Source of the DNA: a virus
Taxonomy: Duplodnaviria; Caudoviricetes
DNA length: 64,000 nucleotides
Virus record (IMG/VR): IMGVR_UViG_3300038345_000087
Span: 1 to 64,000 of that record
Direction: 5' to 3' (one strand)
Shown: positions 5,059 to 44,309 of the stretch, in pieces
Layout: each line of letters begins with the position of its first letter
Position numbering within the stretch: position 1 is the first letter of the stretch
The notes under the pieces: model-generated
What the model was told of the DNA's origin: nothing
The model's input: only the letters and a program-made list of their open reading frames with translations
The model's database searches: none
Position numbers and translations under genes: made by a program

Positions 5059-5859
5059 ATGAATACTCTAAATAACATCACCATCCAGGACATTTACAAC
5101 GTCGTTTCCTTGAATGCCGACAAATGTAACAACCGCTTCCGCGTCACCCGCACCGATGGCTCCTCCAGCATCATGCGCCTCTTTATCTCCACTTCCGACC
5201 GCGTATGTGAGTTTGCCAAGGGCAAGCGTCGCAGTGGTTACTACCTCGAATATATCTATCCCGCTGGCACCTTCGCAAAGGTGGAACCGATGGCCCCCAC
5301 TGCTACCGCTCCCGCAAAGATGGCAAAACGCAACGCCCGCAAAGTGGCGGATCTCCTGGCCGCCTCTGGACTATGGCCGGAACACCGCGCACAGTGCGAG
5401 GCACTGGCCTCTCTCTCAGAGGAAGAAATTACAGAGCTGTTTACTATTTATGCCCGATGGTGGGACTACTCAAAGGGCCATGAATACCGCGACACAGCCT
5501 ATAATGACTTCAAGTTCTTCTTCCAGAGCCGGAACCTTCCTGTGTTCGACATCTACCACTTTCAACAGATGGGAACCAAAGGACAAATCATTTCCGTGCC
5601 CTATGATAAATACTGCCGTCAGTACCACCGCGACAAAGTAAACAATGGTATCGAGGCCATGAAACAGGGACTTTCCGACCGTCCTCTTGGCACTTACGGA
5701 ATCAGCTGGCGCGGTTCCTACGATTATAGCGTCTCTCTCCAGCGTGACAGTGAAGGCGTTTGCCGTGGGTGGTTCTCCGCCGAGTATAAGGGATGTGGCA
5801 ACGGCCACTACTACCTCCTCCTGGATGCTTCCCACGCCCTCTACCTGGAGGATGATTAA
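5059..5859 (+). CDS. Conserved hypothetical phage protein
   Basis: 266-aa ORF; C-terminal WFSAEYKGCGNGHYYLLLD. Confidence 0.7.
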   Translation: MNTLNNITIQDIYNVVSLNADKCNNRFRVTRTDGSSSIMRLFISTSDRVCEFAKGKRRSGYYLEYIYPAGTFAKVEPMAPTATAPAKMAKRNARKVADLLAASGLWPEHRAQCEALASLSEEEITELFTIYARWWDYSKGHEYRDTAYNDFKFFFQSRNLPVFDIYHFQQMGTKGQIISVPYDKYCRQYHRDKVNNGIEAMKQGLSDRPLGTYGISWRGSYDYSVSLQRDSEGVCRGWFSAEYKGCGNGHYYLLLDASHALYLEDD

Positions 5860-19698: not shown

Positions 19699-19727
19699 AA
19701 GGAACCCACTATTTCGGTGGGTTCCTT
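19699..19727. terminator. Terminator hairpin between convergent genes
   Basis: AAGGAACCCAC-tatttcg-GTGGGTTCCTT. Confidence 0.75.
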
Positions 19728-20752
19728 ATTCTTTTTGGTATTCGTCTTGTAGTCCATATTCTTCTAAATACCTTTGACACTTGAATCCTTTTCTTGGGGT
19801 GAAATCCGCGAAACTATGTGCCACGAAGTGCGCTTTTTTGTTCACCCATCCTGCCATGTCCTTTTGCCATTGAGGAATAATCTGCTTCGGATTGTTAGGG
19901 TCTCTGTAAGGCTGTGCGTAGGCATATACAGGACGGCCCTTGCCAGCATCCCTTACGGCTCGCATTTTAATCCACCAATGTTGTATGCGTTCATAGCTCT
20001 CTTTGAAGTCGCTTTTTCCTCCTATCATGGTATAAAGAAAATACTGTCCTGTGAAACCATATCGATTTATCATTTCCATCGCTCGTTCACATTCGATTAT
20101 CTGACCTTTGGTGTCACATCCGAAACGGATTCGGTTGTTGTCTAACCATTTCACTTTTGCCAGCAGCTTTGCAATCTCTTCAGTAACCAATCGTGCATCA
20201 AGTGCCTGGTTGAAATCTACTTTATAACCTCTCTGGATAATTTTCTCTAACTGTTCTATTGCATACGTTCCTGCTGCCAATATGTTATTATCCATCAGAA
20301 CTATTTTTCTGCGGCCTTCAATGGCTATTTCGTCAATATCCATATAAGGACGGATTGCACCTTCTTTTCGTGGTACCACACACCAAGGACATTTGTTTGG
20401 GCATCCCCGTGTGAGGAACCCGTAGGCTGTATCTTTAGGTACATTGGGATAGATAGAGTAGTCTGGTTGCAGCCTGTCTATTTCCTCTGGTAACTGTCTT
20501 TCCACATCGTAACCAGTTCCTCCTTTGATGATTACATCTGCATCATAAATACTTAAATCGTCTGGTGTGAAGTTGAACACTTTTGACATATACAAAATGT
20601 CATAGTGCTGCATGGGCGTAGCCCATTCAATTTGCCCCCCCCTGATTATGCCAGTATCGGGCAATTTTCGCCAATGCAAGATTGGGGTATATGGTTGCTC
20701 CCCATTTCTTTTTCTTGGCATGACCGTCAACATCAACTAAACCGATTTTCAT
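19726..20752 (-). CDS. Radical SAM protein, frameshifted at G8 tract (OFF; G7 restores frame)
   Basis: ATG at 20752 (TGATG overlap) gives MKIGLVDVDG..YPNLALAKIARYWHNQGG, then stop; the CPNKCPWC core follows in another frame after C8 at 20635-20642. Confidence 0.85.
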
Positions 20753-21246
20753 CATGGCTCATTCAGTACTACATATTTTCCTTCAATGCTACACTTCCTG
20801 AGTCGTGAATCACATTTTCTTCCCCATGCCACCAGACATGAGCCAAAGAACGGATGCCCGATTTCTCCTCCTGGACGCAAGAATTTCACTCGATGACGCA
20901 TGAAGAGCATACTGGCAGCGGTTGGAAAGATAACATCTTGAAAGAGAAGATTGTCCTGCCGATTCACCAATAAAGCAATACCTCGTCCATGCTTGGCCAT
21001 CTTCTCTACAAATTGTCGTAGTGGCGCACGACTGTAAGGCGGATTCATCCATACGACTGCCGTACTTGGCCAATCGTGTGCCAATCCGTCTTGCTCTTTG
21101 TTATAGCTGAGTGGAGCAATGGGGTAGGGTGGTTCCATCGGCGCACAAGGATCTAAGTCAAAAGGTCCTAATTCGTCGATTATCCATTTTGGCGTGTACC
21201 ATTCATCGCTTGATACGACCGCATTCTTCTGTTGCCTCGTGTCCAT
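20752..21246 (-). CDS. Phage-type DNA N6-adenine methyltransferase
   Basis: SDEWYTP, FDLDPCA, WMNPPYS. Confidence 0.85.
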   Translation of the reverse strand: MDTRQQKNAVVSSDEWYTPKWIIDELGPFDLDPCAPMEPPYPIAPLSYNKEQDGLAHDWPSTAVVWMNPPYSRAPLRQFVEKMAKHGRGIALLVNRQDNLLFQDVIFPTAASMLFMRHRVKFLRPGGEIGHPFFGSCLVAWGRKCDSRLRKCSIEGKYVVLNEP

Positions 21247-21357
21247 GTCTATAAGAGTAATCTTTTTCGTCCATCACCACGGCATTTATCCCTGGCATCG
21301 GTTCTCCGTCGCCAATGGGCATCGGTGTGAGTGGAATATAAACGGCTATTTTCTTTT

Positions 21358-21654
21358 TCATAATCCTTTTAGTTTTTTCATTTTCTCCATGAGCCTATCA
21401 GCTTGTATTTTTATAGATCTATGTATAATCTGACTGAATGGTTCAACATTGATTATGTTTTGTAACTCTGTCATCTGATCTTTGGTCATTATGATTTCTG
21501 GCCTTCGTTTTGGCAGACTGTTTCGTAGTAATGATTCACACTCTGCCATCGTTCTTGGCATGTCATTGATACTCGCTTTTGGAACATGAATGACAATAGG
21601 CTTATCGTCATCTTGATAAGTGAGCATTCCTGAAGGGAAACCTTTTTCGTCCAT
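21358..21654 (-). CDS. Hypothetical protein
   Basis: 98-aa ORF in operon. Confidence 0.5.
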   Translation of the reverse strand: MDEKGFPSGMLTYQDDDKPIVIHVPKASINDMPRTMAECESLLRNSLPKRRPEIIMTKDQMTELQNIINVEPFSQIIHRSIKIQADRLMEKMKKLKGL

Positions 21655-21656
21655 AT

Positions 21657-21909
21657 CTAAATATCATATTCTATAAAAACACATTGACTGACTTCTCCGG
21701 CCATAAGTGCAGATGCTATATTGCCATCCTCTTTGACTCTTGCGCGACGAAGTTCAGAACTTGGGTAGGCTGCATCGAATACTCCTCCAGAACAGCAAGC
21801 GATATACCCCGCTTCTGTTGCCTGTCTGACTAATAGCCACATTTGCCCCCCCCCTCGTTTCAAGGGCAAGGAATGGCCTCGTGGTGCGGAAATGTCGTAC
21901 TTTACTCAT
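21657..21909 (-). CDS. Stand-alone C5-MTase TRD-like mini-protein, frameshifted at G9 (OFF; G8 = ON)
   Basis: ATG 21909 MSKVRHF..ETRGG, tract 21846-21854, then QMWLLVRQATEAGYIAC..DAAYPSSELRRARV..SALMAGE..FIEYDI*. Confidence 0.7.
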
Positions 21910-21910
21910 T

Positions 21911-22513
21911 CTAATTGAACCATTTTACTACGGTGTCACCTTTCCATCCTTTTTCCCATACGAACCATGCGTAAGCTGTTGCACTTCCACTTATTTCATC
22001 AAACTTACCATTCATGGCACACAATAGCCGTGAACAACTGACCCATATTCGTTTCGGTGGCTGTGTGAGAAAGAGGTGTTTTCTACCTTTGCCTTCCAGA
22101 AATGTTAGTTTTAGGAACATGCACACCTTCTTCCCCGTAGGGATGATAGATAATGCTTTTTCCACGAACTCTTGAGCGTAGGCGTAAGGTGGATTGGTAA
22201 CGATATGCCCGTTCCATTCTTGGTTGTCGATGGAGAGGAAATCGGCCACTTCGCCAAAGCCACGATCGATAAGGTCGCGTGAGGTGACGAAATACCCCCC
22301 CCTCATAAGCACTTTGGAGATATGACCCTCTCCACATGCGGGTTCAAGGATAGGAGCATCAAAGTCCTCCAGCTTTATCAACCATTCTGCGGCTTTCGGC
22401 TCAGTGGCATAGTAGTCAGCCCATGCTCGATCATGGTCTGCATGGTTACTGGCTCCAAGAGTTTTGAAAACGCTTGCTTTACCACCTCTCCAGTCTTTCT
22501 TGCGGTCACTCAT
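21911..22513 (-). CDS. DNA adenine methyltransferase with in-frame G8 tract (ON)
   Basis: DYYATEP, ILEPACGEG, VTNPPY; C8 at 22295-22302 encodes RGG. Confidence 0.85.
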   Translation of the reverse strand: MSDRKKDWRGGKASVFKTLGASNHADHDRAWADYYATEPKAAEWLIKLEDFDAPILEPACGEGHISKVLMRGGYFVTSRDLIDRGFGEVADFLSIDNQEWNGHIVTNPPYAYAQEFVEKALSIIPTGKKVCMFLKLTFLEGKGRKHLFLTQPPKRIWVSCSRLLCAMNGKFDEISGSATAYAWFVWEKGWKGDTVVKWFN

Positions 22514-22869
22514 CGGTTATCTCCGTTTCCGTCTATGACTCCACGTTTTTTACGGTCGGCTAACTTCGCCAGATTGTCCTCGGTGATGCTTTCCAGCTTC
22601 CAACCCATGACATCACAGAGTCCAGCTAATTGCCAAAGGATGTCGCCGGCCTCCTTGCGTAATTCAGGGATATTGTCGGTATGTGCCTTTGCAGTCGGAT
22701 AGGTGAAGTCGTTGTTGTAGATGCTGCCATCTTCTTTGCGGATGCTCTTCGCTATCTTTCCTGCGAACTCTCCCACCTCTGCTACGAGGTTAAGCATCAT
22801 GTAGGAGAAGTTGTTACATGCTTCCATGCGCGTAGTCATGGCTTTTGCTTGATATTCGTTCAGTGTCAT
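22510..22869 (-). CDS. MazG-like nucleotide pyrophosphohydrolase
   Basis: MTLNEYQ, AEVGE, KEAGDILW, NLAKLADR motifs. Confidence 0.85.
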   Translation of the reverse strand: MTLNEYQAKAMTTRMEACNNFSYMMLNLVAEVGEFAGKIAKSIRKEDGSIYNNDFTYPTAKAHTDNIPELRKEAGDILWQLAGLCDVMGWKLESITEDNLAKLADRKKRGVIDGNGDNR

Positions 22870-22906
22870 AATGAATTTGTTTGTTATGAGGTTATGAAAA
22901 ATCACT

Positions 22907-23119
22907 TTATTTTCGGATATGGCTTTGTCTAAGTATTTCTTCAGTCTCGATTTTACAACCAGTTTCTTCGCTCATACTGTCGGCAAAGTAGGTAGCTGCT
23001 TTTAGCAACCTATTGTATAACTGTTCACGCTTCTTCGGGTTCATCAGGAATGCTAAATGTCCCCGCACCCCCTTAGCTCTTTTGCAGTGCGTAGTAGCGT
23101 TTTTCCTAAATTTCTTCAT
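22907..23119 (-). CDS. Hypothetical protein
   Basis: Short ORF in operon. Confidence 0.45.
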   Translation of the reverse strand: MKKFRKNATTHCKRAKGVRGHLAFLMNPKKREQLYNRLLKAATYFADSMSEETGCKIETEEILRQSHIRK

Positions 23120-23327
23120 GGGGTGCTTCTATCTTTTTAAGCATACCGGCATTCACGAGCTTTCTGATGAGGTTCTTTTCATTGAGTGCCATTCTGTAGA
23201 TGCACCCTTCTTTCATGTCAACTCGTCTTGGACTACCCAAATTGGTGATTTTTCCAGTCTGGATGTTAATCTCAAAAACGCATTGTCCTGGTCTGCGTCT
23301 GAGTCTTGCTACATGTTCTTGTTTCAT
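23106..23327 (-). CDS. Hypothetical protein
   Basis: Short ORF; CIYRMALNEKN. Confidence 0.55.
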   Translation of the reverse strand: MKQEHVARLRRRPGQCVFEINIQTGKITNLGSPRRVDMKEGCIYRMALNEKNLIRKLVNAGMLKKIEAPHEEI

Positions 23328-23365
23328 TGTTTAATGAATGTATGATTTAATGAATTGATGAATTT

Positions 23366-24467
23366 TCAATCTTCAAACTCTAACCAATACTGGAGAAATC
23401 GCTCTGCATACCATCGTTTATAGCTTTTGCCGCTTATCCACCAGTCGTATATATTCTCGGCTATTTCTTTTTCTTGCTCCTCGGTCAAGCCGTCAGACGA
23501 GGAGCTACCAGAAAACCCGCGTTTCCCTTTCCAATGTGTCGGGTCTGGGTGTAGGATGTACCCGTAATCGTCGATAGTCTTTTGGGGATAACGGTTTGAA
23601 GTTGGTTCCAATACCGTACCACAGGGTTCCCGTTGGTAGGAATTTTGAGAAATACCCCCCCCATGTCGTATAGCGATAATGGCTTTTATCCAGTTGCGCT
23701 TTACATGGGGCCATCGTTCATTCTCTATGCGCTTTTGGCGTGGGCTGCTCATCGGGCACCCTATGCAGCCTATACGATGAAAGCCCTGGTCGTAGAGTTC
23801 GCAGTGTGGAACTCTTACCACGTCATTCAGGAACTTCCACACATCACGCTCCGTCCAGTTGATTATTGGTGATATCAGCAGGCTCTCTTTGCCGCTGATG
23901 CAGCCAATGGTGGTTTCCTCGGTGGCATTGGTGATATTGATGCCATTTGCCTTGCGGTATTCATCCAGACCATCTAAGGTTCCGCTGTATTTTCGGCTGT
24001 CTATTTCCACCTCATTACGTTTCTTGCGTCGGCTGCTCTCCTGCCTTCTGATGCCGATGAGTGTCACCTTGCCGGCTCCTGCATGTTCTTTGTATTCCTC
24101 ACAGCACCAACGTACTTTCTTCGTTGGTAGTAGTTGCTTGCGCTCTGCCACATGATAGATGCTGTCATTGGGCTTTATCAGTTCTACTTCTGGATAGTGC
24201 TTCTTGACGAAGCGGATTACCTCTGGCGGATCTACTGAAGTAAGATTCATGTGTCCCTCGAAGCGTACACCGGCCAACTGTGCAATATGGTAAAGGGTCT
24301 GACTGTCTTTGCCTCCACTGAAAGCAAGAAAATACCCCCCCCCTATTATCGTAGGCCAGAGCCAGCTTCTCGGCTCTCTGCAAAAGACTGATGGAATACT
24401 CCATTTTCTTTTGCAGCCCCTCACTTGCTCTTGCATACGCTTCCTCTATGGTTATGTCTATGTTCAT
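23366..24467 (-). CDS. PAPS-reductase family protein, frameshifted at G9 (OFF; G8 = ON); second G8 tract is in frame
   Basis: ATG 24467 MNIDITIEEA..YDNRGG, C9 at 24335-24343, then YFLAFSGGKDS, RWCC, GIRRQES, RIGCIGC; C8 at 23655-23662. Confidence 0.85.
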
Positions 24468-24469
24468 TG

Positions 24470-25244
24470 TTACTCGAAGTTTAATCTGCCTTGCCTTCCT
24501 GCTTCTTTGATGCGTTCTACGGCAATGTTGTAGTATTGGGTATCTTTTTCTACACCGATGTATCTTCTTCCTTCCTCGATGGCGGCCACGCATGTCGTTC
24601 CGCTCCCCATCGCATTATCAAGAATTAGCCCCCCCCTGCTCGCTATACGTGCGAATGAGGTGGCGAAGTAGATTTACCGGCTTTTGACTTGGATGCAGCC
24701 ATCCTCCCTTGTGGTGTTCCTTGGGGTAGGATAGGATGCTGCCAGGGTACTTCATTCGGCTCGCCACAGTCTCTGTCTTATTGAAAGTTCCGTAGCAGCT
24801 ATTCTTCACCTCTTTTTTTAGTCGGCCACGTGAATGGCTTGGTTCTCCAACTTTCATCTGAGGGTGATAGATGGGTAGCTGTTTATAGAACACGCAGATG
24901 TCCTCATGCTGTCTCAATGGCATCCGTTTCGCATTCAGAAAACCAGAACAGCGGGCCTTATCCCAAATGAGATTGTACTTCCACATTTTTGGATTACTCA
25001 TCATCAGGTGTGCTGTAAACATTCCTTGTGCGAAAAGAAGAATGGCTCCTCGTGGTTTAATGATTCGCCTATACTGTTCCCATAATGGTTCAAGTGGTAT
25101 CACACAATCCCATTGTGCGGACTTGTTGCTTTTATTGAGTACGCCGTATGGCAAATCGCAGATGATAGCGTCGATGCTTTCGTCTGCAATGTCTGTCATT
25201 ACGTCTAAACAGTCACCAAGGTAGATGTTATTTGGCTCTATCAT
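24470..25244 (-). CDS. Beta-class N4/N6 DNA methyltransferase, frameshifted at G8 (OFF; G7 = ON)
   Basis: GDCL, DLPYG, HPSQKP; the SAM-binding LILDNAMGSGTT and YIGVEKD lie past C8 at 24629-24636 in another frame, ending 24470. Confidence 0.88.
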
Positions 25245-38533: not shown

Positions 38534-39673
38534 ATGAAATACAGTATTTCATCCCGCGAACTCCGCTCTGTGTTGGATGCGGTTCGTAAAGTAATTTTGA
38601 AGCGAAACACGCTTCCAGTGCTTGATAATGCTCTTATCTCTTATCGCGATGAGCGTTTCTTCGTTACGGGTTCATCCGTAGAAAACACGCTGACGATGCC
38701 TATTGACTTGCGTCCGCTGGATAAGGACCCGTTCGTCCCCTTCTGCATCGATGTGACAAACCTCACGGCGATTCTTGCTACACTGCCAGAACAGCCCATT
38801 GAACTGTCGGTGAACCCTGACACCTTCTTAACGACATTGAAATATCAGGGTGGAGAGTTCAACATCCCCGCCTATGACGGAAAGGAGTACCCGCTGCCGA
38901 AACCTATCACTCAGGTGGCAGTGGCATTCTCTGCTCCTACGAACATTCTTCTGCCGGCTATGAGATCGGCATTGAATGTGACTTCAGAGGATGAACTGCG
39001 TCCTCAGATGTCGGCTGTGGCTTTGGATGTATCTTCAGAAGGTATCACATTCGTTGGTACGAATGGTAAGATGCTGTATAAGTATGAATGGACGCATGGT
39101 ATGCCTTTCCTGACTGAAGGCCAACCGGCCATTGTTCTCTTCCCGCGTACTGTAATCAATGCGATGGATGCTCCTTTCTCTAAGGTGGAGGAGATTTCTG
39201 TTCGCTCAGATGGCCGTCAAGTAGAGGTGACGGCTGGCGATGTGTCCTTCTCCATCCGTTCCGTGGAAGGGCGTTATCCGAATTATAACAGCGTCATCCC
39301 GAAGGATAACCCTTACCATGTCACGTTGCCTGTGAAGGATCTGATGAACACCATTCGTCGTGTTTCGATGGTGGCTTCAGACAACTCAAAGTTGATTGCA
39401 CTGCGCCGCACAGACCTTTTCCTTCAAATGACTGCGGATGATGTTGACTTCTCTCGTTCTGCTCACGAGGAGTTGTCAATGGATGACTGCACGCTTCCAG
39501 AAGGCTTTGCCATCGGTCTCAACTATCCATGTTTGCTGACCCTTCTCTCGGCTATCTCTACGGAAAAAGTGCGTATTGAACTGTCTGCTCCAGAACGTCC
39601 TCTTATCTTGAAGGAGGATGCCAACAACTCTACCCTTCTTGAACTGCTGATGCCGATGGCTCTCAACACATGA
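38534..39673 (+). CDS. dnaN: DNA polymerase III beta sliding clamp
   Basis: NTLPVLDN, DELRPQM, VGTNGKML, EGRYPNYNSVIP, LLMPM. Confidence 0.92.
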   Translation: MKYSISSRELRSVLDAVRKVILKRNTLPVLDNALISYRDERFFVTGSSVENTLTMPIDLRPLDKDPFVPFCIDVTNLTAILATLPEQPIELSVNPDTFLTTLKYQGGEFNIPAYDGKEYPLPKPITQVAVAFSAPTNILLPAMRSALNVTSEDELRPQMSAVALDVSSEGITFVGTNGKMLYKYEWTHGMPFLTEGQPAIVLFPRTVINAMDAPFSKVEEISVRSDGRQVEVTAGDVSFSIRSVEGRYPNYNSVIPKDNPYHVTLPVKDLMNTIRRVSMVASDNSKLIALRRTDLFLQMTADDVDFSRSAHEELSMDDCTLPEGFAIGLNYPCLLTLLSAISTEKVRIELSAPERPLILKEDANNSTLLELLMPMALNT

Positions 39674-39679
39674 GAGACC

Positions 39680-39775
39680 ATGCCTGATAGTGCGCCCGCT
39701 GGTTCATCTGGCGGGTGCCTTTCAGTCTCATTGGATTCTTCACCACCATTAGTGCTGATTGAATATGAATTGTAA
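39680..39775 (+). CDS. Mini-ORF 0 of the IEY array (31 aa, probably degenerate)
   Basis: MPDSAPAGSSGGCLSVSLDSSPPLVLIEYEL*. Confidence 0.45.
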   Translation: MPDSAPAGSSGGCLSVSLDSSPPLVLIEYEL

Positions 39776-40076
39776 ACTGGCAAAATTCTATGAATACGGC
39801 TCTACCTCATATTATGTGACAGGTGATGGTAGGGTGTTGAGTACACGGAATCCTGACCTCCCAATGGATTCTTGGCACGAGATAGCATCTTTCAACGGTA
39901 AGGGCTATCGTCGTGTGCGCATCCAGCGAAAGAACTTCAAGGTGCATCGTTTGGTGGCTGAAGCCTTTGTGCCAAACCCCGACAATCTCCCTCATGTTCT
40001 TCATATAGATGGCGACCGCTGTAATAATCATTATACAAATCTCGAATGGTCCGCGTCCCAATCCAATCACCAATAA
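39765..40076 (+). CDS. HNH endonuclease (NUMOD4/HNH_3-like)
   Basis: GYRRVRI..KVHRLVAEAFVPNP..HIDGDRCNNHYTNLEW. Confidence 0.85.
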   Translation: MNCKLAKFYEYGSTSYYVTGDGRVLSTRNPDLPMDSWHEIASFNGKGYRRVRIQRKNFKVHRLVAEAFVPNPDNLPHVLHIDGDRCNNHYTNLEWSASQSNHQ

Positions 40077-40207
40077 TCCTTGGCTACTATTCTCCTTCGC
40101 AGAATGGTGTTGTGGTCTCTCCATACGGTATCGCGTTATGCCTTGCAGGGGGGGGTAAAGGACATGATACGGACAAACCTAAAATTCTCATAGAGTATGA
40201 TGTGTAA
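40046..40207 (+). CDS. TRD-like mini-protein 1 (53 aa), G8 in frame (ON)
   Basis: ..SPSQNGVVVSPYGIALCLAGGGKGHDTDKPKILIEYDV*; G8 at 40148-40155. Confidence 0.7.
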   Translation: MVRVPIQSPIILGYYSPSQNGVVVSPYGIALCLAGGGKGHDTDKPKILIEYDV

Positions 40208-40346
40208 TGGTGTGGTCATTCTGGTGCTCGGTTCACTCCAGCCGCACGCAGCTGTGGTCAACGTAGTAGGGGGGGGTAATTTCATCCCTTGCTTAGGAAC
40301 AACAGATTTCGGACTTCCAAAATTGGTGATAGAATATGATGTTTAG
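40197..40346 (+). CDS. TRD-like mini-protein 2 (49 aa), G8 in frame (ON)
   Basis: ..GSLQPHAAVVNVVGGGNFIPCLGTTDFGLPKLVIEYDV*; G8 at 40269-40276. Confidence 0.7.
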   Translation: MMCNGVVILVLGSLQPHAAVVNVVGGGNFIPCLGTTDFGLPKLVIEYDV

Positions 40347-40526
40347 TATAACGAATATAGGCGCATTCCGCGTAACGAGGGGGGGGGGCAAATCTGTCCT
40401 ATCAATGTCACGCTTGATGGCTGTGCTGCTACCATCACTACACGTTATGGCGCAATGGACTATTCCAACATCATCAGTTTCGGCCATTTTCCTATGACGG
40501 CTTGTTTATTGGAGTATGATTTATAA
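40336..40526 (+). CDS. TRD-like mini-protein 3, G10 out of frame (OFF; G8 or G11 = ON)
   Basis: MMFSITNIGAFRVTRGG, G10 at 40379-40388, then QICPINVTLDGCAATITTRYGAMDYSNIISFGHFPMTACLLEYDL*. Confidence 0.7.
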
Positions 40527-40687
40527 GATAATAGGTTGGTCCCGCGATGCAGTAGGCAGGGTGGTATGTTATCACTTAAAGGACATCTGCAACACACTTA
40601 CCACCTTTGTAGGGGGGTAAATTTAAGGACTCAAAAACAGACCTCGGCAATACTACGCCTTATGTCTTTATAGAATATGAATTGTAA
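40516..40687 (+). CDS. TRD-like mini-protein 4, G6 out of frame (OFF; G5 or G8 = ON)
   Basis: MIYKIIGWSRD..ICNTLTTFVGG stop at 40618; the shifted frame gives KFKDSKTDLGNTTPYVFIEYEL*. Confidence 0.7.
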
Positions 40688-40940
40688 AAAAAGTATGTTG
40701 ATAAAATCTATTAGATATATAGGATTCCTGAGACCTGACGTGAGTTGTGGCACTGGTTATTCAGAACCCGATAAGTTCCATGTGGTTTATGATACAGGGT
40801 TGGAAACTGATGTGTGGGTTGATATTTGGAATCTTCCAGAGGAATGTGTACGTAGTGCTTTTTTAGAGGATTGTATGATGCTTTTCATTCGCTACCCAAT
40901 AATCTTGATGAAGCATTTGAAATGTATAAGCAAGCAATAA
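40677..40940 (+). CDS. Hypothetical protein inside the array
   Basis: 87 aa; starts MNCK with the same junction sequence as the HNH gene. Confidence 0.5.
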   Translation: MNCKKSMLIKSIRYIGFLRPDVSCGTGYSEPDKFHVVYDTGLETDVWVDIWNLPEECVRSAFLEDCMMLFIRYPIILMKHLKCISKQ

Positions 40941-41001
40941 TTCCAACAGGACGTTGCCCACATTTTTGGCTTAATGAACGTAAAAAACAATAATATATAA
41001 T

Positions 41002-42252
41002 ATGATAGCTAAAATTTATCCAGACAATCATCCAGATTTGGCGGGCAAGCGTGACCCGTCACATCCAGTCCGTTACTTCGATATCCGTAAACTGACAGAA
41101 GGTGAATGCCTCCGTTTGATGGATGTTCCTGAACCTGACATCATCAAACTTTGTAATGCAACAAAGGGCAAGGCGGGGCGCATCAAAGAAAACGAACCCG
41201 CTTATGGTGAAGCAGGACATGGGAAAGGCTCTCCTGTGCTTTCTCGTTCTGCTATCTATAAACTTGCAGGAAACAGTATTGTTGTTTCATGCTTACGTCA
41301 TATCTTCAAGAATATCTATTTGACAGAGGATGATCCTAATGACGCTTTTGAATTGTTCCCTGAACCGACATTCCGTGCCCCTATTCCTTCTACCATTCGT
41401 CTTGTTACACTTTGCTCAGGTTATGACTCACAAGCCATCGCCCTTCAGCAAGTGGTAGATGAGATAAACCAGGGGGGGCAAATCAACGGTTCCGTATGTT
41501 GCGATGGTATCGCAACCCAATTAGATTTGCTTGCTTGGGCTGAATACGACCCAGATCGTCCGAAAATACCACTTGAAAGACAACCCGCCGTAGTTGCACA
41601 TAATATCCTTTTTCCCCAATATGCGGATCGTAACCTCGGCGATATGACAAAGATTGATTGGCCTTCCGTCTATGAGGAGTGGAAGGCGAAAGGAATCTCC
41701 GAAATCGATATTCTTACTTATTCTACGCCATGCCAAAGTATTTCTCAGGCTAGTAAAAGAGCCGGCATAAAGAAAGGTTCTGGCACCCGATCTTCTATAC
41801 TATGGTACACAGAGAATGCCATCCGTACACTCCGACCTAAATTTCTTCTTCAAGAAAATGTCCGCGCTCTGGTGAATGAGGTGAACATTGATGATTTCCG
41901 TGAGTGGCAACAAGTCTGTACTGATTGTGGATATGACAACTATTGGGCCATACTGAATGCAAAGGATTTTGGCGTACCGCAAAACCGTGAGCGTGTGTTC
42001 ATGCTTTCCGTCAGAAAGGATTTGAACCTACCCATATATCGTTTTCCTAAACCTTTCCGCCTCTTGAAGTGTATTGCAGACATCCTTGATGAGGATGTAC
42101 CAGAGAGTTATTTCTTGAAGCCGGATAGTGTTATCAAGTTCTTTCAGACCAATGAAGCAGATAAGAATGCGGCCATCTGTTATGCTTATACAGACCACAA
42201 ACTTTCTAATGAGGAAATCGCACGCATTCGTAAAGAGAATGGGGTGGGGTAA
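41002..42252 (+). CDS. Circularly permuted C5-cytosine DNA methyltransferase core without TRD; in-frame G7 tract
   Basis: Motif order IX (IRKLTEGECLRLMD), X (YKLAGNSIVV), I (TLCSGYDSQ), IV (STPCQ), VI (QENV), VII (LNAKDFG), VIII (PQNRERVF); G7 at 41472-41478. Confidence 0.9.
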   Translation: MIAKIYPDNHPDLAGKRDPSHPVRYFDIRKLTEGECLRLMDVPEPDIIKLCNATKGKAGRIKENEPAYGEAGHGKGSPVLSRSAIYKLAGNSIVVSCLRHIFKNIYLTEDDPNDAFELFPEPTFRAPIPSTIRLVTLCSGYDSQAIALQQVVDEINQGGQINGSVCCDGIATQLDLLAWAEYDPDRPKIPLERQPAVVAHNILFPQYADRNLGDMTKIDWPSVYEEWKAKGISEIDILTYSTPCQSISQASKRAGIKKGSGTRSSILWYTENAIRTLRPKFLLQENVRALVNEVNIDDFREWQQVCTDCGYDNYWAILNAKDFGVPQNRERVFMLSVRKDLNLPIYRFPKPFRLLKCIADILDEDVPESYFLKPDSVIKFFQTNEADKNAAICYAYTDHKLSNEEIARIRKENGVG

Positions 42253-42553
42253 TGAAAAAGATGCTGATAAAAGATACCGAACCGTCCGAAGATATGGCTC
42301 GCATCCGTATTTCGGCAAGCCGTGGCAGGGGGGGCAATCTATGACTTACCTCTATGACCGTTCGCCAAAAGATGATACTGCACCTGTTCGTGTGGCTTCA
42401 TCTGTTAATCGTGACCTTGATGACCTTTCTTTTCGTGGTGCTCATGCGACAAGGAACTTCCATCAAGTCATAGAACTTGGCTCTTCTCGGTTCACCAACA
42501 CTATCACTTCTGTTCTAAAAGACAATCTCGTATGGATAGAGTGTTTTCCGTAA
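42252..42553 (+). CDS. TRD-like mini-protein 5, split at G7 (G8 fuses both parts; the downstream half also has its own ATG at 42341)
   Basis: MKKML..RISASRGRGGNL* then MTYLY..RVASSVNRD..FTNTITSVLKDNLVWIECFP*; G7 at 42328-42334. Confidence 0.65.
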
Positions 42554-42675
42554 GTTTGATTCGTTATCCACATGGTAAGTTTCGTGGTGGTCATTATCAT
42601 GTTCATGCTTTTCCTCCATTAACGACCTCTTGCTTCCAAAACAATAACTTTCTACTTATTGAATATGATTCCTAA
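42532..42675 (+). CDS. TRD-like mini-protein 6 (47 aa, no G tract)
   Basis: ..IRYPHGKFRGGHYHVHAFPPLTTSCFQNNNFLLIEYDS*. Confidence 0.7.
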   Translation: MDRVFSVSLIRYPHGKFRGGHYHVHAFPPLTTSCFQNNNFLLIEYDS

Positions 42676-42901
42676 TAGCCGCCCTGCATGTTGCGATTCT
42701 ATCGAAACTCTCTCATTGACCATTACTACCTCCGCACCTCCTAAACGTATTCCAGGGGGGGCACTTCTTCCTGTAAATACAACAGCCGACGGGCTGGCTT
42801 GCACTCTCAACACTCGTTACGAGGCTATGGCTCTTCCGCTCGACATCCTTTCCCTGGCTCATTACCCCAAGACAGTTATTTTGATAGAGTGGTTCCTATA
42901 A
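42665..42901 (+). CDS. TRD-like mini-protein 7, G7 in frame (ON)
   Basis: ..PGGALLPVNTTADGLACTLNTRYEAM..HYPKTVILIEWFL*; paralog of unit 3; G7 at 42755-42761. Confidence 0.7.
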   Translation: MIPNSRPACCDSIETLSLTITTSAPPKRIPGGALLPVNTTADGLACTLNTRYEAMALPLDILSLAHYPKTVILIEWFL

Positions 42902-43014
42902 TGACCATCAACTCTTCACAAGATGGCATCGTGGTTTCTCCTTGGGGCATTTCTCCTACACACACAGCCGGTCATGGTAATATGCCCAAGGTAATAGTAG
43001 AATACGACTTGTAA
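42901..43014 (+). CDS. TRD-like mini-protein 8 (37 aa)
   Basis: MTINSSQDGIVVSPWGISPTHTAGHGNMPKVIVEYDL*; paralog of unit 1. Confidence 0.7.
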   Translation: MTINSSQDGIVVSPWGISPTHTAGHGNMPKVIVEYDL

Positions 43015-43025
43015 AGCCACTGTTT

Positions 43026-43052
43026 CCGATGGATCTCCATCGGGTCTTTTTT
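43026..43052 (+). terminator. Intrinsic terminator closing the replication/methylation operon
   Basis: CCGATGGA-TC-TCCATCGG followed by a T tract. Confidence 0.7.
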
Positions 43053-43169
43053 GTCGTTTTTGTATGCAGCATGGTTTGCCCATGCTGTTTTTCATTTGTT
43101 CCGTTCCCCTCCTCTTCCCTTTGTATCTTTGCCTTGTAAATAATGTAAAATCCTAAATAAATCAAAATT

Positions 43170-44309
43170 ATGCTTATCTCCTCCGTTGAAGAACTGCGTC
43201 TCTACGCTCCTGCCAATGCCATCGATCATATCGAAACACTGGCTGGTTTTCTGGATAGTTCTGAACACGATTTCCTTGCTGAGAAATTGGGTCATCCTCT
43301 TCACGCTTCTCTCACGGAATACTATCAGAACCTACTCAACTCTGAAGATGGCCTTGCTGATTATATCCAATCCATCACCAACGGTATAGAAATGCCTCCT
43401 TACGCACGCCTCTTGACTGTGGCACAGCGCATCGTGGCTTTTGATGCTCTTGGTCGTGCTATTGACATGCAAGCCATCAGTGTGAATGGTGCTGGCATCA
43501 ATATCTCCACGGCTGATGACTACGCAAAGGCTGATCGTGAAGCGGTGTCAGCTTACAAAAGTACGTGCATCAAAGAGGCACATGCGGCTGTCAATCGCCT
43601 TTTGGTCCTTCTCGAAGAGTGGACGAAGGATGCGGTAGAAGATACGGATCCTGTGCCAGACGGCTCTTCTTCGGGTTCCGAGGAAGAGGAAGAACAGACC
43701 ACTCCAGAACAGGAGAAATCAGAAATCGCCCGTCTTTGGCGTTCTTCTCGATTTTTCTACCTTGCTGCTGGTCTCATTATTCCGTCGGCAATAGTCCTTC
43801 AAGACTATCTCAATATCTATGAGTCTCGTGAAAAATTCATCACTTTGCTTCCTGAACTTCGTACCATTCAGGAGGACATCATAGCACCCATTATTGGAGA
43901 GGATTTTATGGACTATCTTATCGCGTTCTCGCGTGATCCGAAACCTTCTTTAGAAGCCTCCGTGCAAGAAGGTGATTCCTCTGGTCTTTCAGAAGCAGAC
44001 GTGCGCCTTCTTTCTCGCATCCTTCATCGACTTCGCAAGGCTGTAGCACGTCACTTGGAATCGCGTACCATGCAGATGAAGCTCACAGACCCGCGTCGCA
44101 ATGCGGCCCATAATGAGGCGGTACAGTTGACAACGGATCTTGCAGACTATATCGCCGCTCATCAGAGCGACCTACCAACGGATGCCATCACTGCTTTCAC
44201 CACCTCCCCATTGTATAAACCTACGGATGTGACCACGGAGGAAGAAGTACCCTCTTTTGAGAACAATGCTCCCGATTCTGTCATTTTCGTTACTCCTGCT
44301 CTGTCCTAA
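43170..44309 (+). CDS. Putative virion structural protein (head-tail adaptor-like)
   Basis: First gene of a module after TATCTTTG, upstream of tail genes; function inferred from position. Confidence 0.5.
   Translation: MLISSVEELRLYAPANAIDHIETLAGFLDSSEHDFLAEKLGHPLHASLTEYYQNLLNSEDGLADYIQSITNGIEMPPYARLLTVAQRIVAFDALGRAIDMQAISVNGAGINISTADDYAKADREAVSAYKSTCIKEAHAAVNRLLVLLEEWTKDAVEDTDPVPDGSSSGSEEEEEQTTPEQEKSEIARLWRSSRFFYLAAGLIIPSAIVLQDYLNIYESREKFITLLPELRTIQEDIIAPIIGEDFMDYLIAFSRDPKPSLEASVQEGDSSGLSEADVRLLSRILHRLRKAVARHLESRTMQMKLTDPRRNAAHNEAVQLTTDLADYIAAHQSDLPTDAITAFTTSPLYKPTDVTTEEEVPSFENNAPDSVIFVTPALS

Follow-up and report, generated by a model that had tools for sequence, protein, structure and literature searches.

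The first 64,000 nucleotides of the virus record IMGVR_UViG_3300038345_000087 (in the following simply the window) encode, within positions 39,680 to 43,014, a circularly permuted cytosine-C5 DNA methyltransferase (C5-MTase) core that is surrounded by nine mini-genes; a tenth mini-gene is located 19 kb away. We consider it probable that these genes together form a modular, phase-variable and multispecific C5-MTase, in which the mini-genes provide target recognition domain (TRD) units in trans. The best-supported parts of this reading are that the mini-genes are real and that the G tracts inside them are hypervariable, while the docking of free units onto the core is its weakest link. Anatomy, conservation, linkage to the core and tract variability could be observed directly and are described first.

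The core ORF is intact, and its protein matches the C5-MTase family PF00145 (E 8e-41). In the alignment to M.HhaI, its residues 228-367 correspond to HhaI 65-201 (motifs IV-VIII) and its residues 81-105 to HhaI 294-318 (motif X). Because of this alignment order the core can be described as permuted, with motifs IX and X placed ahead of I to VIII (overall order IX-X-I-IV-VI-VIII). Motifs IX and X read RKLTEGEC... and KLAGNS, and the I-VIII part contains CSGYDSQ, TPCQS, QENV and QNRERVF. The latter three, representing motifs IV, VI and VIII, are invariant or nearly so across 41 relatives, and motifs IX and X are found at the N-terminus of the core as RKLTEGECLRLMDVP and KLAGNSIVV. Since every motif lies within one chain of 416 amino acids, the core does not belong to the two-chain type with split catalytic motifs. 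Its arrangement, IX-X before I-VIII on one polypeptide, is that of the M.BssHII-type permutation.

The same chain does not contain a TRD between motifs VIII and IX. It starts (MIAKIYP) 28 amino acids ahead of motif IX and ends 83 amino acids past QNRERVF, so that in HhaI terms it stops at about residue 218 and restarts before motif IX. Neither is a TRD kept at the N-terminus, as in Type H enzymes, and no T-L/GGG segment is present in the core protein. The recognition segment of HhaI, which we take to be residues ~222-271 with Q237 and T250-L251 (a numbering that fits the mutant names in PDB titles), begins where the core chain ends. Thus, the core is permuted and without the recognition part of the variable region. 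In the case of a relative, P0034, an AlphaFold2 (AF2) model from a 69-row alignment reached a predicted local distance difference test (pLDDT) score of 82, and its residues 101-413 superpose on HhaI 1-218 (Z ~18) but not beyond. Some core residues, about 29 at the C-terminus and 28 at the N-terminus, are without HhaI counterpart and are conserved in the family. Altogether, the family match and the M.HhaI alignment bear out the original prediction of a permuted, TRD-less C5-MTase core.

The core family is large, with more than 7,000 proteins at E <= 0.001 among 8,000 candidates scored. The closest relatives listed are mostly 360-430 amino acids long and have common ends, an N-terminal MIAKIYP...VRYFDIRKLT and a C-terminal ...TDHKLS.EEI. 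Among GenBank phages, the best match to the core has ~40% identity, in two pieces. At least four architectures could be distinguished in this subfamily (loci L019, L021, L024, L029, L030, L058 and L031-L079): contiguous enzymes with a TRD in cis (the L031 group), permuted enzymes with a fused TRD, permuted TRD-less cores with free units, and an open reading frame (ORF) with motifs I-VIII only that is followed by units, as in a two-chain enzyme. Such I-VIII-only ORFs were seen in L019, L021, L024, L029 and L030. Additionally, inteins (PF14890, PF14528) are found within the core of some relatives.

The mini-units (U1 to U10) are listed in the table together with the core and the neighbouring features. 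Their most prominent common element is a C-terminal tail, [ILVMF][ILVMFC]E[YWFC]x(1-3)-stop, which occurs eight times on the plus strand of 39674-43014 as compared to three loose matches in the other 60 kb; U6, with its variant tail, makes the ninth unit of the array. The nine flanking mini-ORFs of the original prediction were recovered in full, and the T-L/I-like cores that it listed are present. Its statement that all nine share the tail needs one correction. In the case of U4 and U5, the ORFs from ATG to stop end in ...SAIFL and ...FVGG and are consequently out of frame here; they reach the EY tail only across a frameshift at the poly-G tract. Two pairs of paralogs, numbered 1/8 and 3/7 in a count from zero, were likewise found again: U2 and U9 are 41% identical, and for U4 and U8 the L013 orthologue of U4 is 50% identical to U8.

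Table. Features of the methyltransferase array and its surroundings in the window (tract lengths in other samples are from assembled contigs).
Feature	Position	Strand	Size	C-terminal tail	G tract and state in the window	Tract length in other samples	Remarks
Sliding-clamp gene	38534-39673						Upstream flank of array; Pfam DNA_pol3_beta domains
U1	39680..39775	+	31 aa	LIEYEL	no poly-G		Short, possibly reduced unit
HNH_3 homing-type endonuclease	39765..40076	+	103 aa				PF13392 E 4e-9; phrog_59 E 2e-28
U2	40046..40207	+	53 aa	LIEYDV	G8 40148-40155, ON	G7, G8, G9	GIALCLAGGG core
U3	40197..40346	+	49 aa	VIEYDV	G8 40269-40276, ON	G8, G9 (G9 in X4)	
U4	40336..40526	+		LLEYDL	G10 40379-40388, OFF	G6, G7, G8	Leader ATG 40336; body in other frame, stop at 40526
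U5	40516..40687	+		FIEYEL	G6 40612-40617, OFF	G6, G8 (X2, X3), G9 (X6)	CNTLTT type; leader ATG 40516; stop at 40687
Cargo ORF	40677..40940	+					Starts at ATG embedded in U5 tail codons
Permuted C5-MTase core	41002..42252	+	416 aa		G7 41472-41478	G7, G8 (X6; would break frame)	PF00145 E 8e-41
U6	42252..42553	+		WIECFP	G7 42328-42334, long form OFF	G7, G8 (X6, long form ON)	NTITSVLKDNL type; leader ATG 42252; internal ATG at 42341 would yield 70 aa
U7	42532..42675	+	47 aa	LIEYDS	no poly-G		GG encoded as GGT GGT
U8	42665..42901	+	78 aa	LIEWFL	G7 42755-42761, ON		CTLNTRY type
U9	42901..43014	+	37 aa	IVEYDL			GISPTHTAGHG type; last unit; Tyr codon TAC, no embedded ATG
Two terminator-like hairpins with T runs	43025..43098	+					Directly 3' of U9
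DUF6712 gene	43170-44309						Downstream flank of array
U10	21657..21909	-		FIEYDI	G9 21854-21846, OFF		Remote unit; behind phrog_799 DNA MTase, in second poly-G operon

The ATG of the next unit is embedded in the GAR-TAT-GA (E-Y-D/E) codons of the preceding tail, and because of this, successive in-frame units step by +1. The last unit of several relatives' arrays also has a TAC tyrosine codon and no embedded ATG. Over all loci, an embedded ATG and a unit behind it are associated to a moderate degree only (Fisher p 0.018), in part because non-unit genes also start there. Recoding of stop codons across the units was considered as well and rejected, as the units are in different frames and long genes are read normally. 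In one relative, two different units are combined in a single ORF of 103 amino acids (L005:3004-3312; ...VLSEY, then a second one ending MVEYDL), thus a natural tandem-TRD mini-protein.

The mini-units are real genes; they are conserved, stand alone and are linked to this family of cores. When the U8 family profile (A1) was run against 1.84 billion representative proteins, it gave 77 matches (clusters at the 50% identity level), 75 of which are 43-111 amino acids long, and most alignments reach the C-terminus; no match inside a contiguous MTase was obtained. In the alignment of 56 members, most starts fall within a few columns and the consensus spans from start to tail. Units from four families, the remote U10 among them, have a ratio of nonsynonymous to synonymous substitution (dN/dS) of ~0.1-0.2, and this holds even for units that are OFF in the window. 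BLAST clustering divided the units into a dozen or more families with several members each, besides singletons. For U2, a word-index search for longer proteins holding it returned only small ORFs (96-144 amino acids), and tblastn against GenBank phages gave no match.

The linkage to the core was found again elsewhere, in a comparison with other genomes such as the original prediction had proposed as a check: among 79 viral loci fetched with a core, 22 distinct ones carry at least three units, some of them about 11. Starting from the opposite side, four divergent members of the U8 family were looked up, and three of them lie on the same strand as an adjoining called PF00145 gene, together with small ORFs that overlap. 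In the remaining one (L084), the partial gene beside the unit carries no Pfam record. The three core N-termini present at these loci are of the MIAK...FDIRKLT type.

Poly-G phase variation is the best-supported mechanistic feature of the system. Seven G6-G10 tracts are located in the array and core, and the remote U10 also carries one. In the whole window, all G or C runs of at least eight lie within the array or in a minus-strand modification operon (20.6-24.6 kb). When four independent assemblies, ~99% identical over 3.5 kb, were compared to the window, 10 of the 11 listed indels were in G tracts. Tract lengths vary by up to 4 bases (assemblies of 5-19x depth), with one other indel in the remaining 3.4 kb. 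The ON/OFF pattern deduced from these lengths is different in every sample. Two properties of a contingency locus were thus found, namely a homopolymer in the coding region that sets the frame and its length polymorphism between near-identical genomes.

In the window, six units can be read in frame, while U4, U5, long U6 and U10 are out of frame, and G8 would restore each of these four. Orthologues of U4 (L013, with G8) and of U5 (L011 and L013) are in frame. Over 22 loci of relatives, 33 tract-bearing units are ON and 33 are OFF, with tract lengths peaking at G8 for ON and at G7 for OFF; in 32 of the 33 OFF units the leader starts with an ATG, is intact and extends into the tract. Two loci, L013 and L014, agree in their unit families and in the order of these, but have different tract lengths. 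Since some arrays (L082, L084) are without any G tract, the poly-G switch is an addition to the modular system.

The context of the tracts is itself conserved across unrelated genes. In 117 G tracts of at least seven (L001-L079 and the window), the preceding base is A or T (93%), and the tract is followed by C or T, then A (84%), then A/T and A/T; many tracts read R-G-G-Q-I. This context may favour slippage or mark a common origin. In the core genes of L007, L008, L009, L011, L013 and L014, a C8-C10 run is located ~30 codons past the start (locus ~5095-5127), and the core of the window has its G7 at 41472 instead.

Similarity of the units to recognition domains is weak but present. The L031 group consists of contiguous, non-permuted C5-MTases with a TRD in cis at residues 251-272, directly before motif IX. 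U6 aligns to this TRD in BLASTP with 12 of 21 residues identical (E 7e-4), and the profile of its family (unit family 3) gave an hhalign E of 1.8e-4 for the same segment. The comparison of mini-ORFs with variable regions of contiguous enzymes, which had been proposed as a check, therefore points to a TRD relationship for U6 and its family. Moreover, in about 30 of the 120 closest core relatives a TRD-like module (...AITILAGISSRNHYFVCEE...) is fused in cis a few residues before MIAKIYP, which is where, in the permuted order, a TRD between motifs VIII and IX canonically belongs. In P0081, P0083, P0098 and similar proteins, a GGQ site located 12-13 codons from the start lies ahead of the resident fused TRD, and these genes are often called from an internal MLDTYN start; their TRD may be phase-variable too, leaving a TRD-less core when OFF.

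Further insight on action in trans comes from U10. It is located on the opposite strand to the core and in a different operon, it is under purifying selection according to dN/dS, and its orthologues are found inside the arrays of L007, L011, L013 and L014. The window is the first part of a record of 106,650 bp that is rated complete by CheckV, and this whole record holds exactly one PF00145 match. If U10 acts on a C5-MTase, it must therefore act in trans, because the only C5 core of the complete genome is 19 kb away on the other strand.

An explanation close to the favoured one is that the units are TRD modules that act in cis, joined with each other or with the core into poly-TRD chains by +1 frameshifting or transcriptional slippage. 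We consider this unlikely. In line with it, every in-frame unit is in the +1 frame relative to the one before, the G tracts could slip in transcription as well, and natural fusions exist, both of two units (L005) and of unit and core (~30 relatives). However, no slippery site is conserved at the junctions, where the codons ahead of the stop are variable and 0-3 codons separate the tyrosine from the stop. Most members of the U8 family start within a few columns, and the gene ahead of a unit can also be a non-unit one (the core, the HNH gene or the phrog_799 MTase). In addition, the arrays are located on both sides of the core, U10 is remote and on the other strand, and the arrays of L082 and L084 have no G tract.

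In the trans mechanism that we favour, a single permuted chain carries all ten catalytic and S-adenosylmethionine (SAM)-binding motifs. As this chain ends at about M.HhaI 218-220 and restarts just before motif IX, a DNA-reading segment of ~50 residues is missing from it. This segment would be supplied by free mini-proteins of 31-100 amino acids, ten of them here, each being a different TRD-like module. We propose that each module would dock in trans to complete the small domain of the core, probably through a pairing of the module's terminal strand with the conserved N-terminal MIAKIYP strand of the core, with the C-terminal IxYxxTDHKLS element of the core, or with both. Each module would then direct 5-methylcytosine (5mC) to its own motif.

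Translational coupling would link the units to each other, since the E-Y-D/E codons of one unit contain the start codon of the next. In most units the G6-G10 tract encodes a Gly-Gly(-Gly) stretch, and the core also has a tract. Since slippage in a tract changes the reading frame, each specificity could be switched ON and OFF individually, in a heritable and independent manner. The likely payoff is a phage population with mixed methylation patterns, which would spread the risk between hosts whose restriction is blocked by methylation and hosts whose restriction depends on it.

Several points weigh against this reading. The similarity between units and TRDs rests on short stretches of 19-21 residues, and the units are without Pfam (E up to 10), PHROG or PDB sequence match, which is not unexpected for TRDs; the profiles A1 and A3 gave only chance matches against PDB sequences. 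For U2, the alignment to HhaI Q237-G257 has the register that one would expect, but it is not significant (E 0.2). In hhalign, the resident cis TRD and the U8 family aligned over 11 columns with a probability of 1.5%, a weak result for a comparison of two unit families by profile. In the AF2 model of P0034 the core is confident, whereas the fused TRD (residues 1-48) has a pLDDT <50. As the core retains ~29 C-terminal and 28 N-terminal extra residues, these ~57 terminal residues might give it a basal specificity of its own. Finally, the sample comparison was made on assembled contigs, and homopolymer assembly errors may account for part of the differences. Regarding P0034, the single-sequence AF2 prediction of this natural TRD-core fusion reached a pLDDT of 33, and a search for further proteins with its N-terminal TRD returned P0034 alone. 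The ESM Atlas gave low-scoring hypothetical clusters only.

Some of these points would also fit mini-proteins that are conserved partners of the MTase, such as regulators, inhibitors or anti-restriction peptides, next to a core with its own fixed or relaxed specificity. The lack of significant matches of the units to curated families or solved structures and the ~57 terminal core residues without HhaI counterpart speak for such partners. Still, we regard them as quite improbable: the many distinct families share only the tail, T-L/I and Gly-Gly, which is what TRDs rather than a single regulator would be expected to show, the cis TRD that U6 and its family match has the canonical position, and the fused forms put a unit exactly at the place of the TRD. 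That the array is the decaying debris of a contiguous multispecific MTase, with G-run differences due to sequencing or assembly errors, is very improbable, for although half of the tract-bearing units are out of frame, homopolymers are error-prone and a neighbouring ORF of the window shows a T6/T7 difference, the dN/dS of 0.1-0.2 includes OFF units, 77 clusters (50% identity) are maintained as mini-proteins, 32 of 33 OFF units retain the ATG-led leader up to the tract, the tracts differ by up to 4 bases at 5-19x depth with one other indel in 3.4 kb, and runs of at least eight are confined to modification genes.

Regarding the genomic setting, the host virus of the array is a tailed rumen or gut phage, and contigs ~99% identical occur in the gut metagenomes of many studies, bovine and sheep ones among them. 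The 5.8-kb region gave no blastn match to GenBank phages, and no tRNA, including suppressor tRNA, was found within the 64-kb window.

Two non-unit ORFs interrupt the array, the HNH_3 endonuclease, whose ATG sits inside the E-Y-E codons of the U1 tail, and the unrelated cargo ORF behind U5, for which neither a Pfam nor a PHROG match was obtained. Both begin with MNCK at a unit-tail ATG (...IEYEL-stop; junctions 39759 and 40670), and because of this the unit-tail junction is an entry point for cargo genes too. The endonuclease might aid the movement of cassettes between phages. At position 40858, the cargo ORF has T6 in the window and T7 in four other samples. As the T7 form opens a longer frame, extending to 40993 and ending 8 nt short of the core ATG, the window copy is probably frameshifted, or the T run is another switch.

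A second DNA-modification operon is located on the minus strand at 19726-25244, with six coding-strand G8-G9 tracts. It contains radical SAM, Dam-like MTase, phrog_799 MTase, MazG, PAPS-reductase-like and N6_N4 MTase genes, and also houses the TRD-like unit U10.

The nearest known system in function is that of the multispecific C5-MTases of Bacillus phages (M.SPRI, M.Phi3TI, M.Rho11sI, SPbeta). These are likewise phage enzymes in which one scaffold uses several short, swappable TRDs of ~40-50 amino acids, each with a T-L/I core and a specificity of its own, presumably against restriction. Their TRDs, however, are arranged in tandem between motifs VIII and IX of one polypeptide, whereas here the modules are separate ORFs, each with its own stop and the next with its own ATG in another frame. 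Also, the core here is permuted and TRD-less, and the modules, most of them with poly-G, are found on both of its sides and 19 kb off.

In architecture, the nearest enzymes are the natural permuted C5-MTases and the two-chain M.AquI. Split and permuted C5-MTases can be active, and the natural permutations all lie within the variable region (PMC5944983). In M.BssHII, M.Alw26I, M2.Eco31I, M.Esp3I and M2.BsaI, motifs IX-X come first and the breakpoint is in the variable region, as here (PMC5944983). These natural permuted enzymes mostly keep the TRD in the chain (Type H), and P0081 and other relatives to which a resident TRD is fused do look like them, whereas the core of the window starts after and ends before the TRD position. 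The two-chain M.AquI and M.EcoHK31I and the engineered split forms of M.HhaI, M.SssI and M.HaeIII demonstrate that an active assembly of separate polypeptides, divided in or near the variable region, is feasible for a C5-MTase (PMC5944983, PMC3404938, PMC3439449). Two-chain enzymes divide the catalytic motifs and have one fixed partner, in contrast to a whole catalytic chain that would take its recognition module from a library.

In regulation, the nearest systems are phase-variable MTases with simple-sequence repeats, such as ModA/ModM and the Campylobacter Type IIG enzyme (PMC6902483, PMC4889913). There, too, a repeat in the coding region switches specificity by frameshift and tract length differs between near-identical genomes. 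Those enzymes are bacterial, act mostly on adenine and have one switch per enzyme, whereas here a phage would use switches in many modules and in the core, in a combinatorial manner. Type I HsdS subunits and shufflons are functionally alike in that the catalytic subunit is shared, while specificity resides in a separate protein and varies within a population. They are without homology to the units, large, belong to adenine MTases and vary by recombination, and not by homopolymer slippage as here.

Overall, none of the compared systems joins a whole TRD-less catalytic chain with a library of free, individually switched modules, and in our literature search no description of this architecture was found. 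We see an even chance that this is the first natural C5-MTase built like a Type I system, with a TRD-less chain and a library of free recognition subunits of 4-10 kDa acting in trans, where the core and every subunit would have a poly-G switch of their own. In that case, the ten modules could give up to about a thousand methylome states, and the modules would be portable cassettes, as seen at other loci and beside the homing endonuclease.

If the modules dock in trans, this would represent a new design of a cytosine MTase, in which the scaffold is kept apart from small, exchangeable readers, with a direct use in the engineering of targeted 5mC writers. Because the arrays form a well-defined subset of a large core family, many natural pairs of TRD and target motif could become readable from metagenomes. 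It would also mean that phages, and not only bacterial pathogens, use combinatorial mutational switches, and that these switches diversify the epigenetic camouflage of the phage against both methylation-blocked and methylation-dependent host defences.

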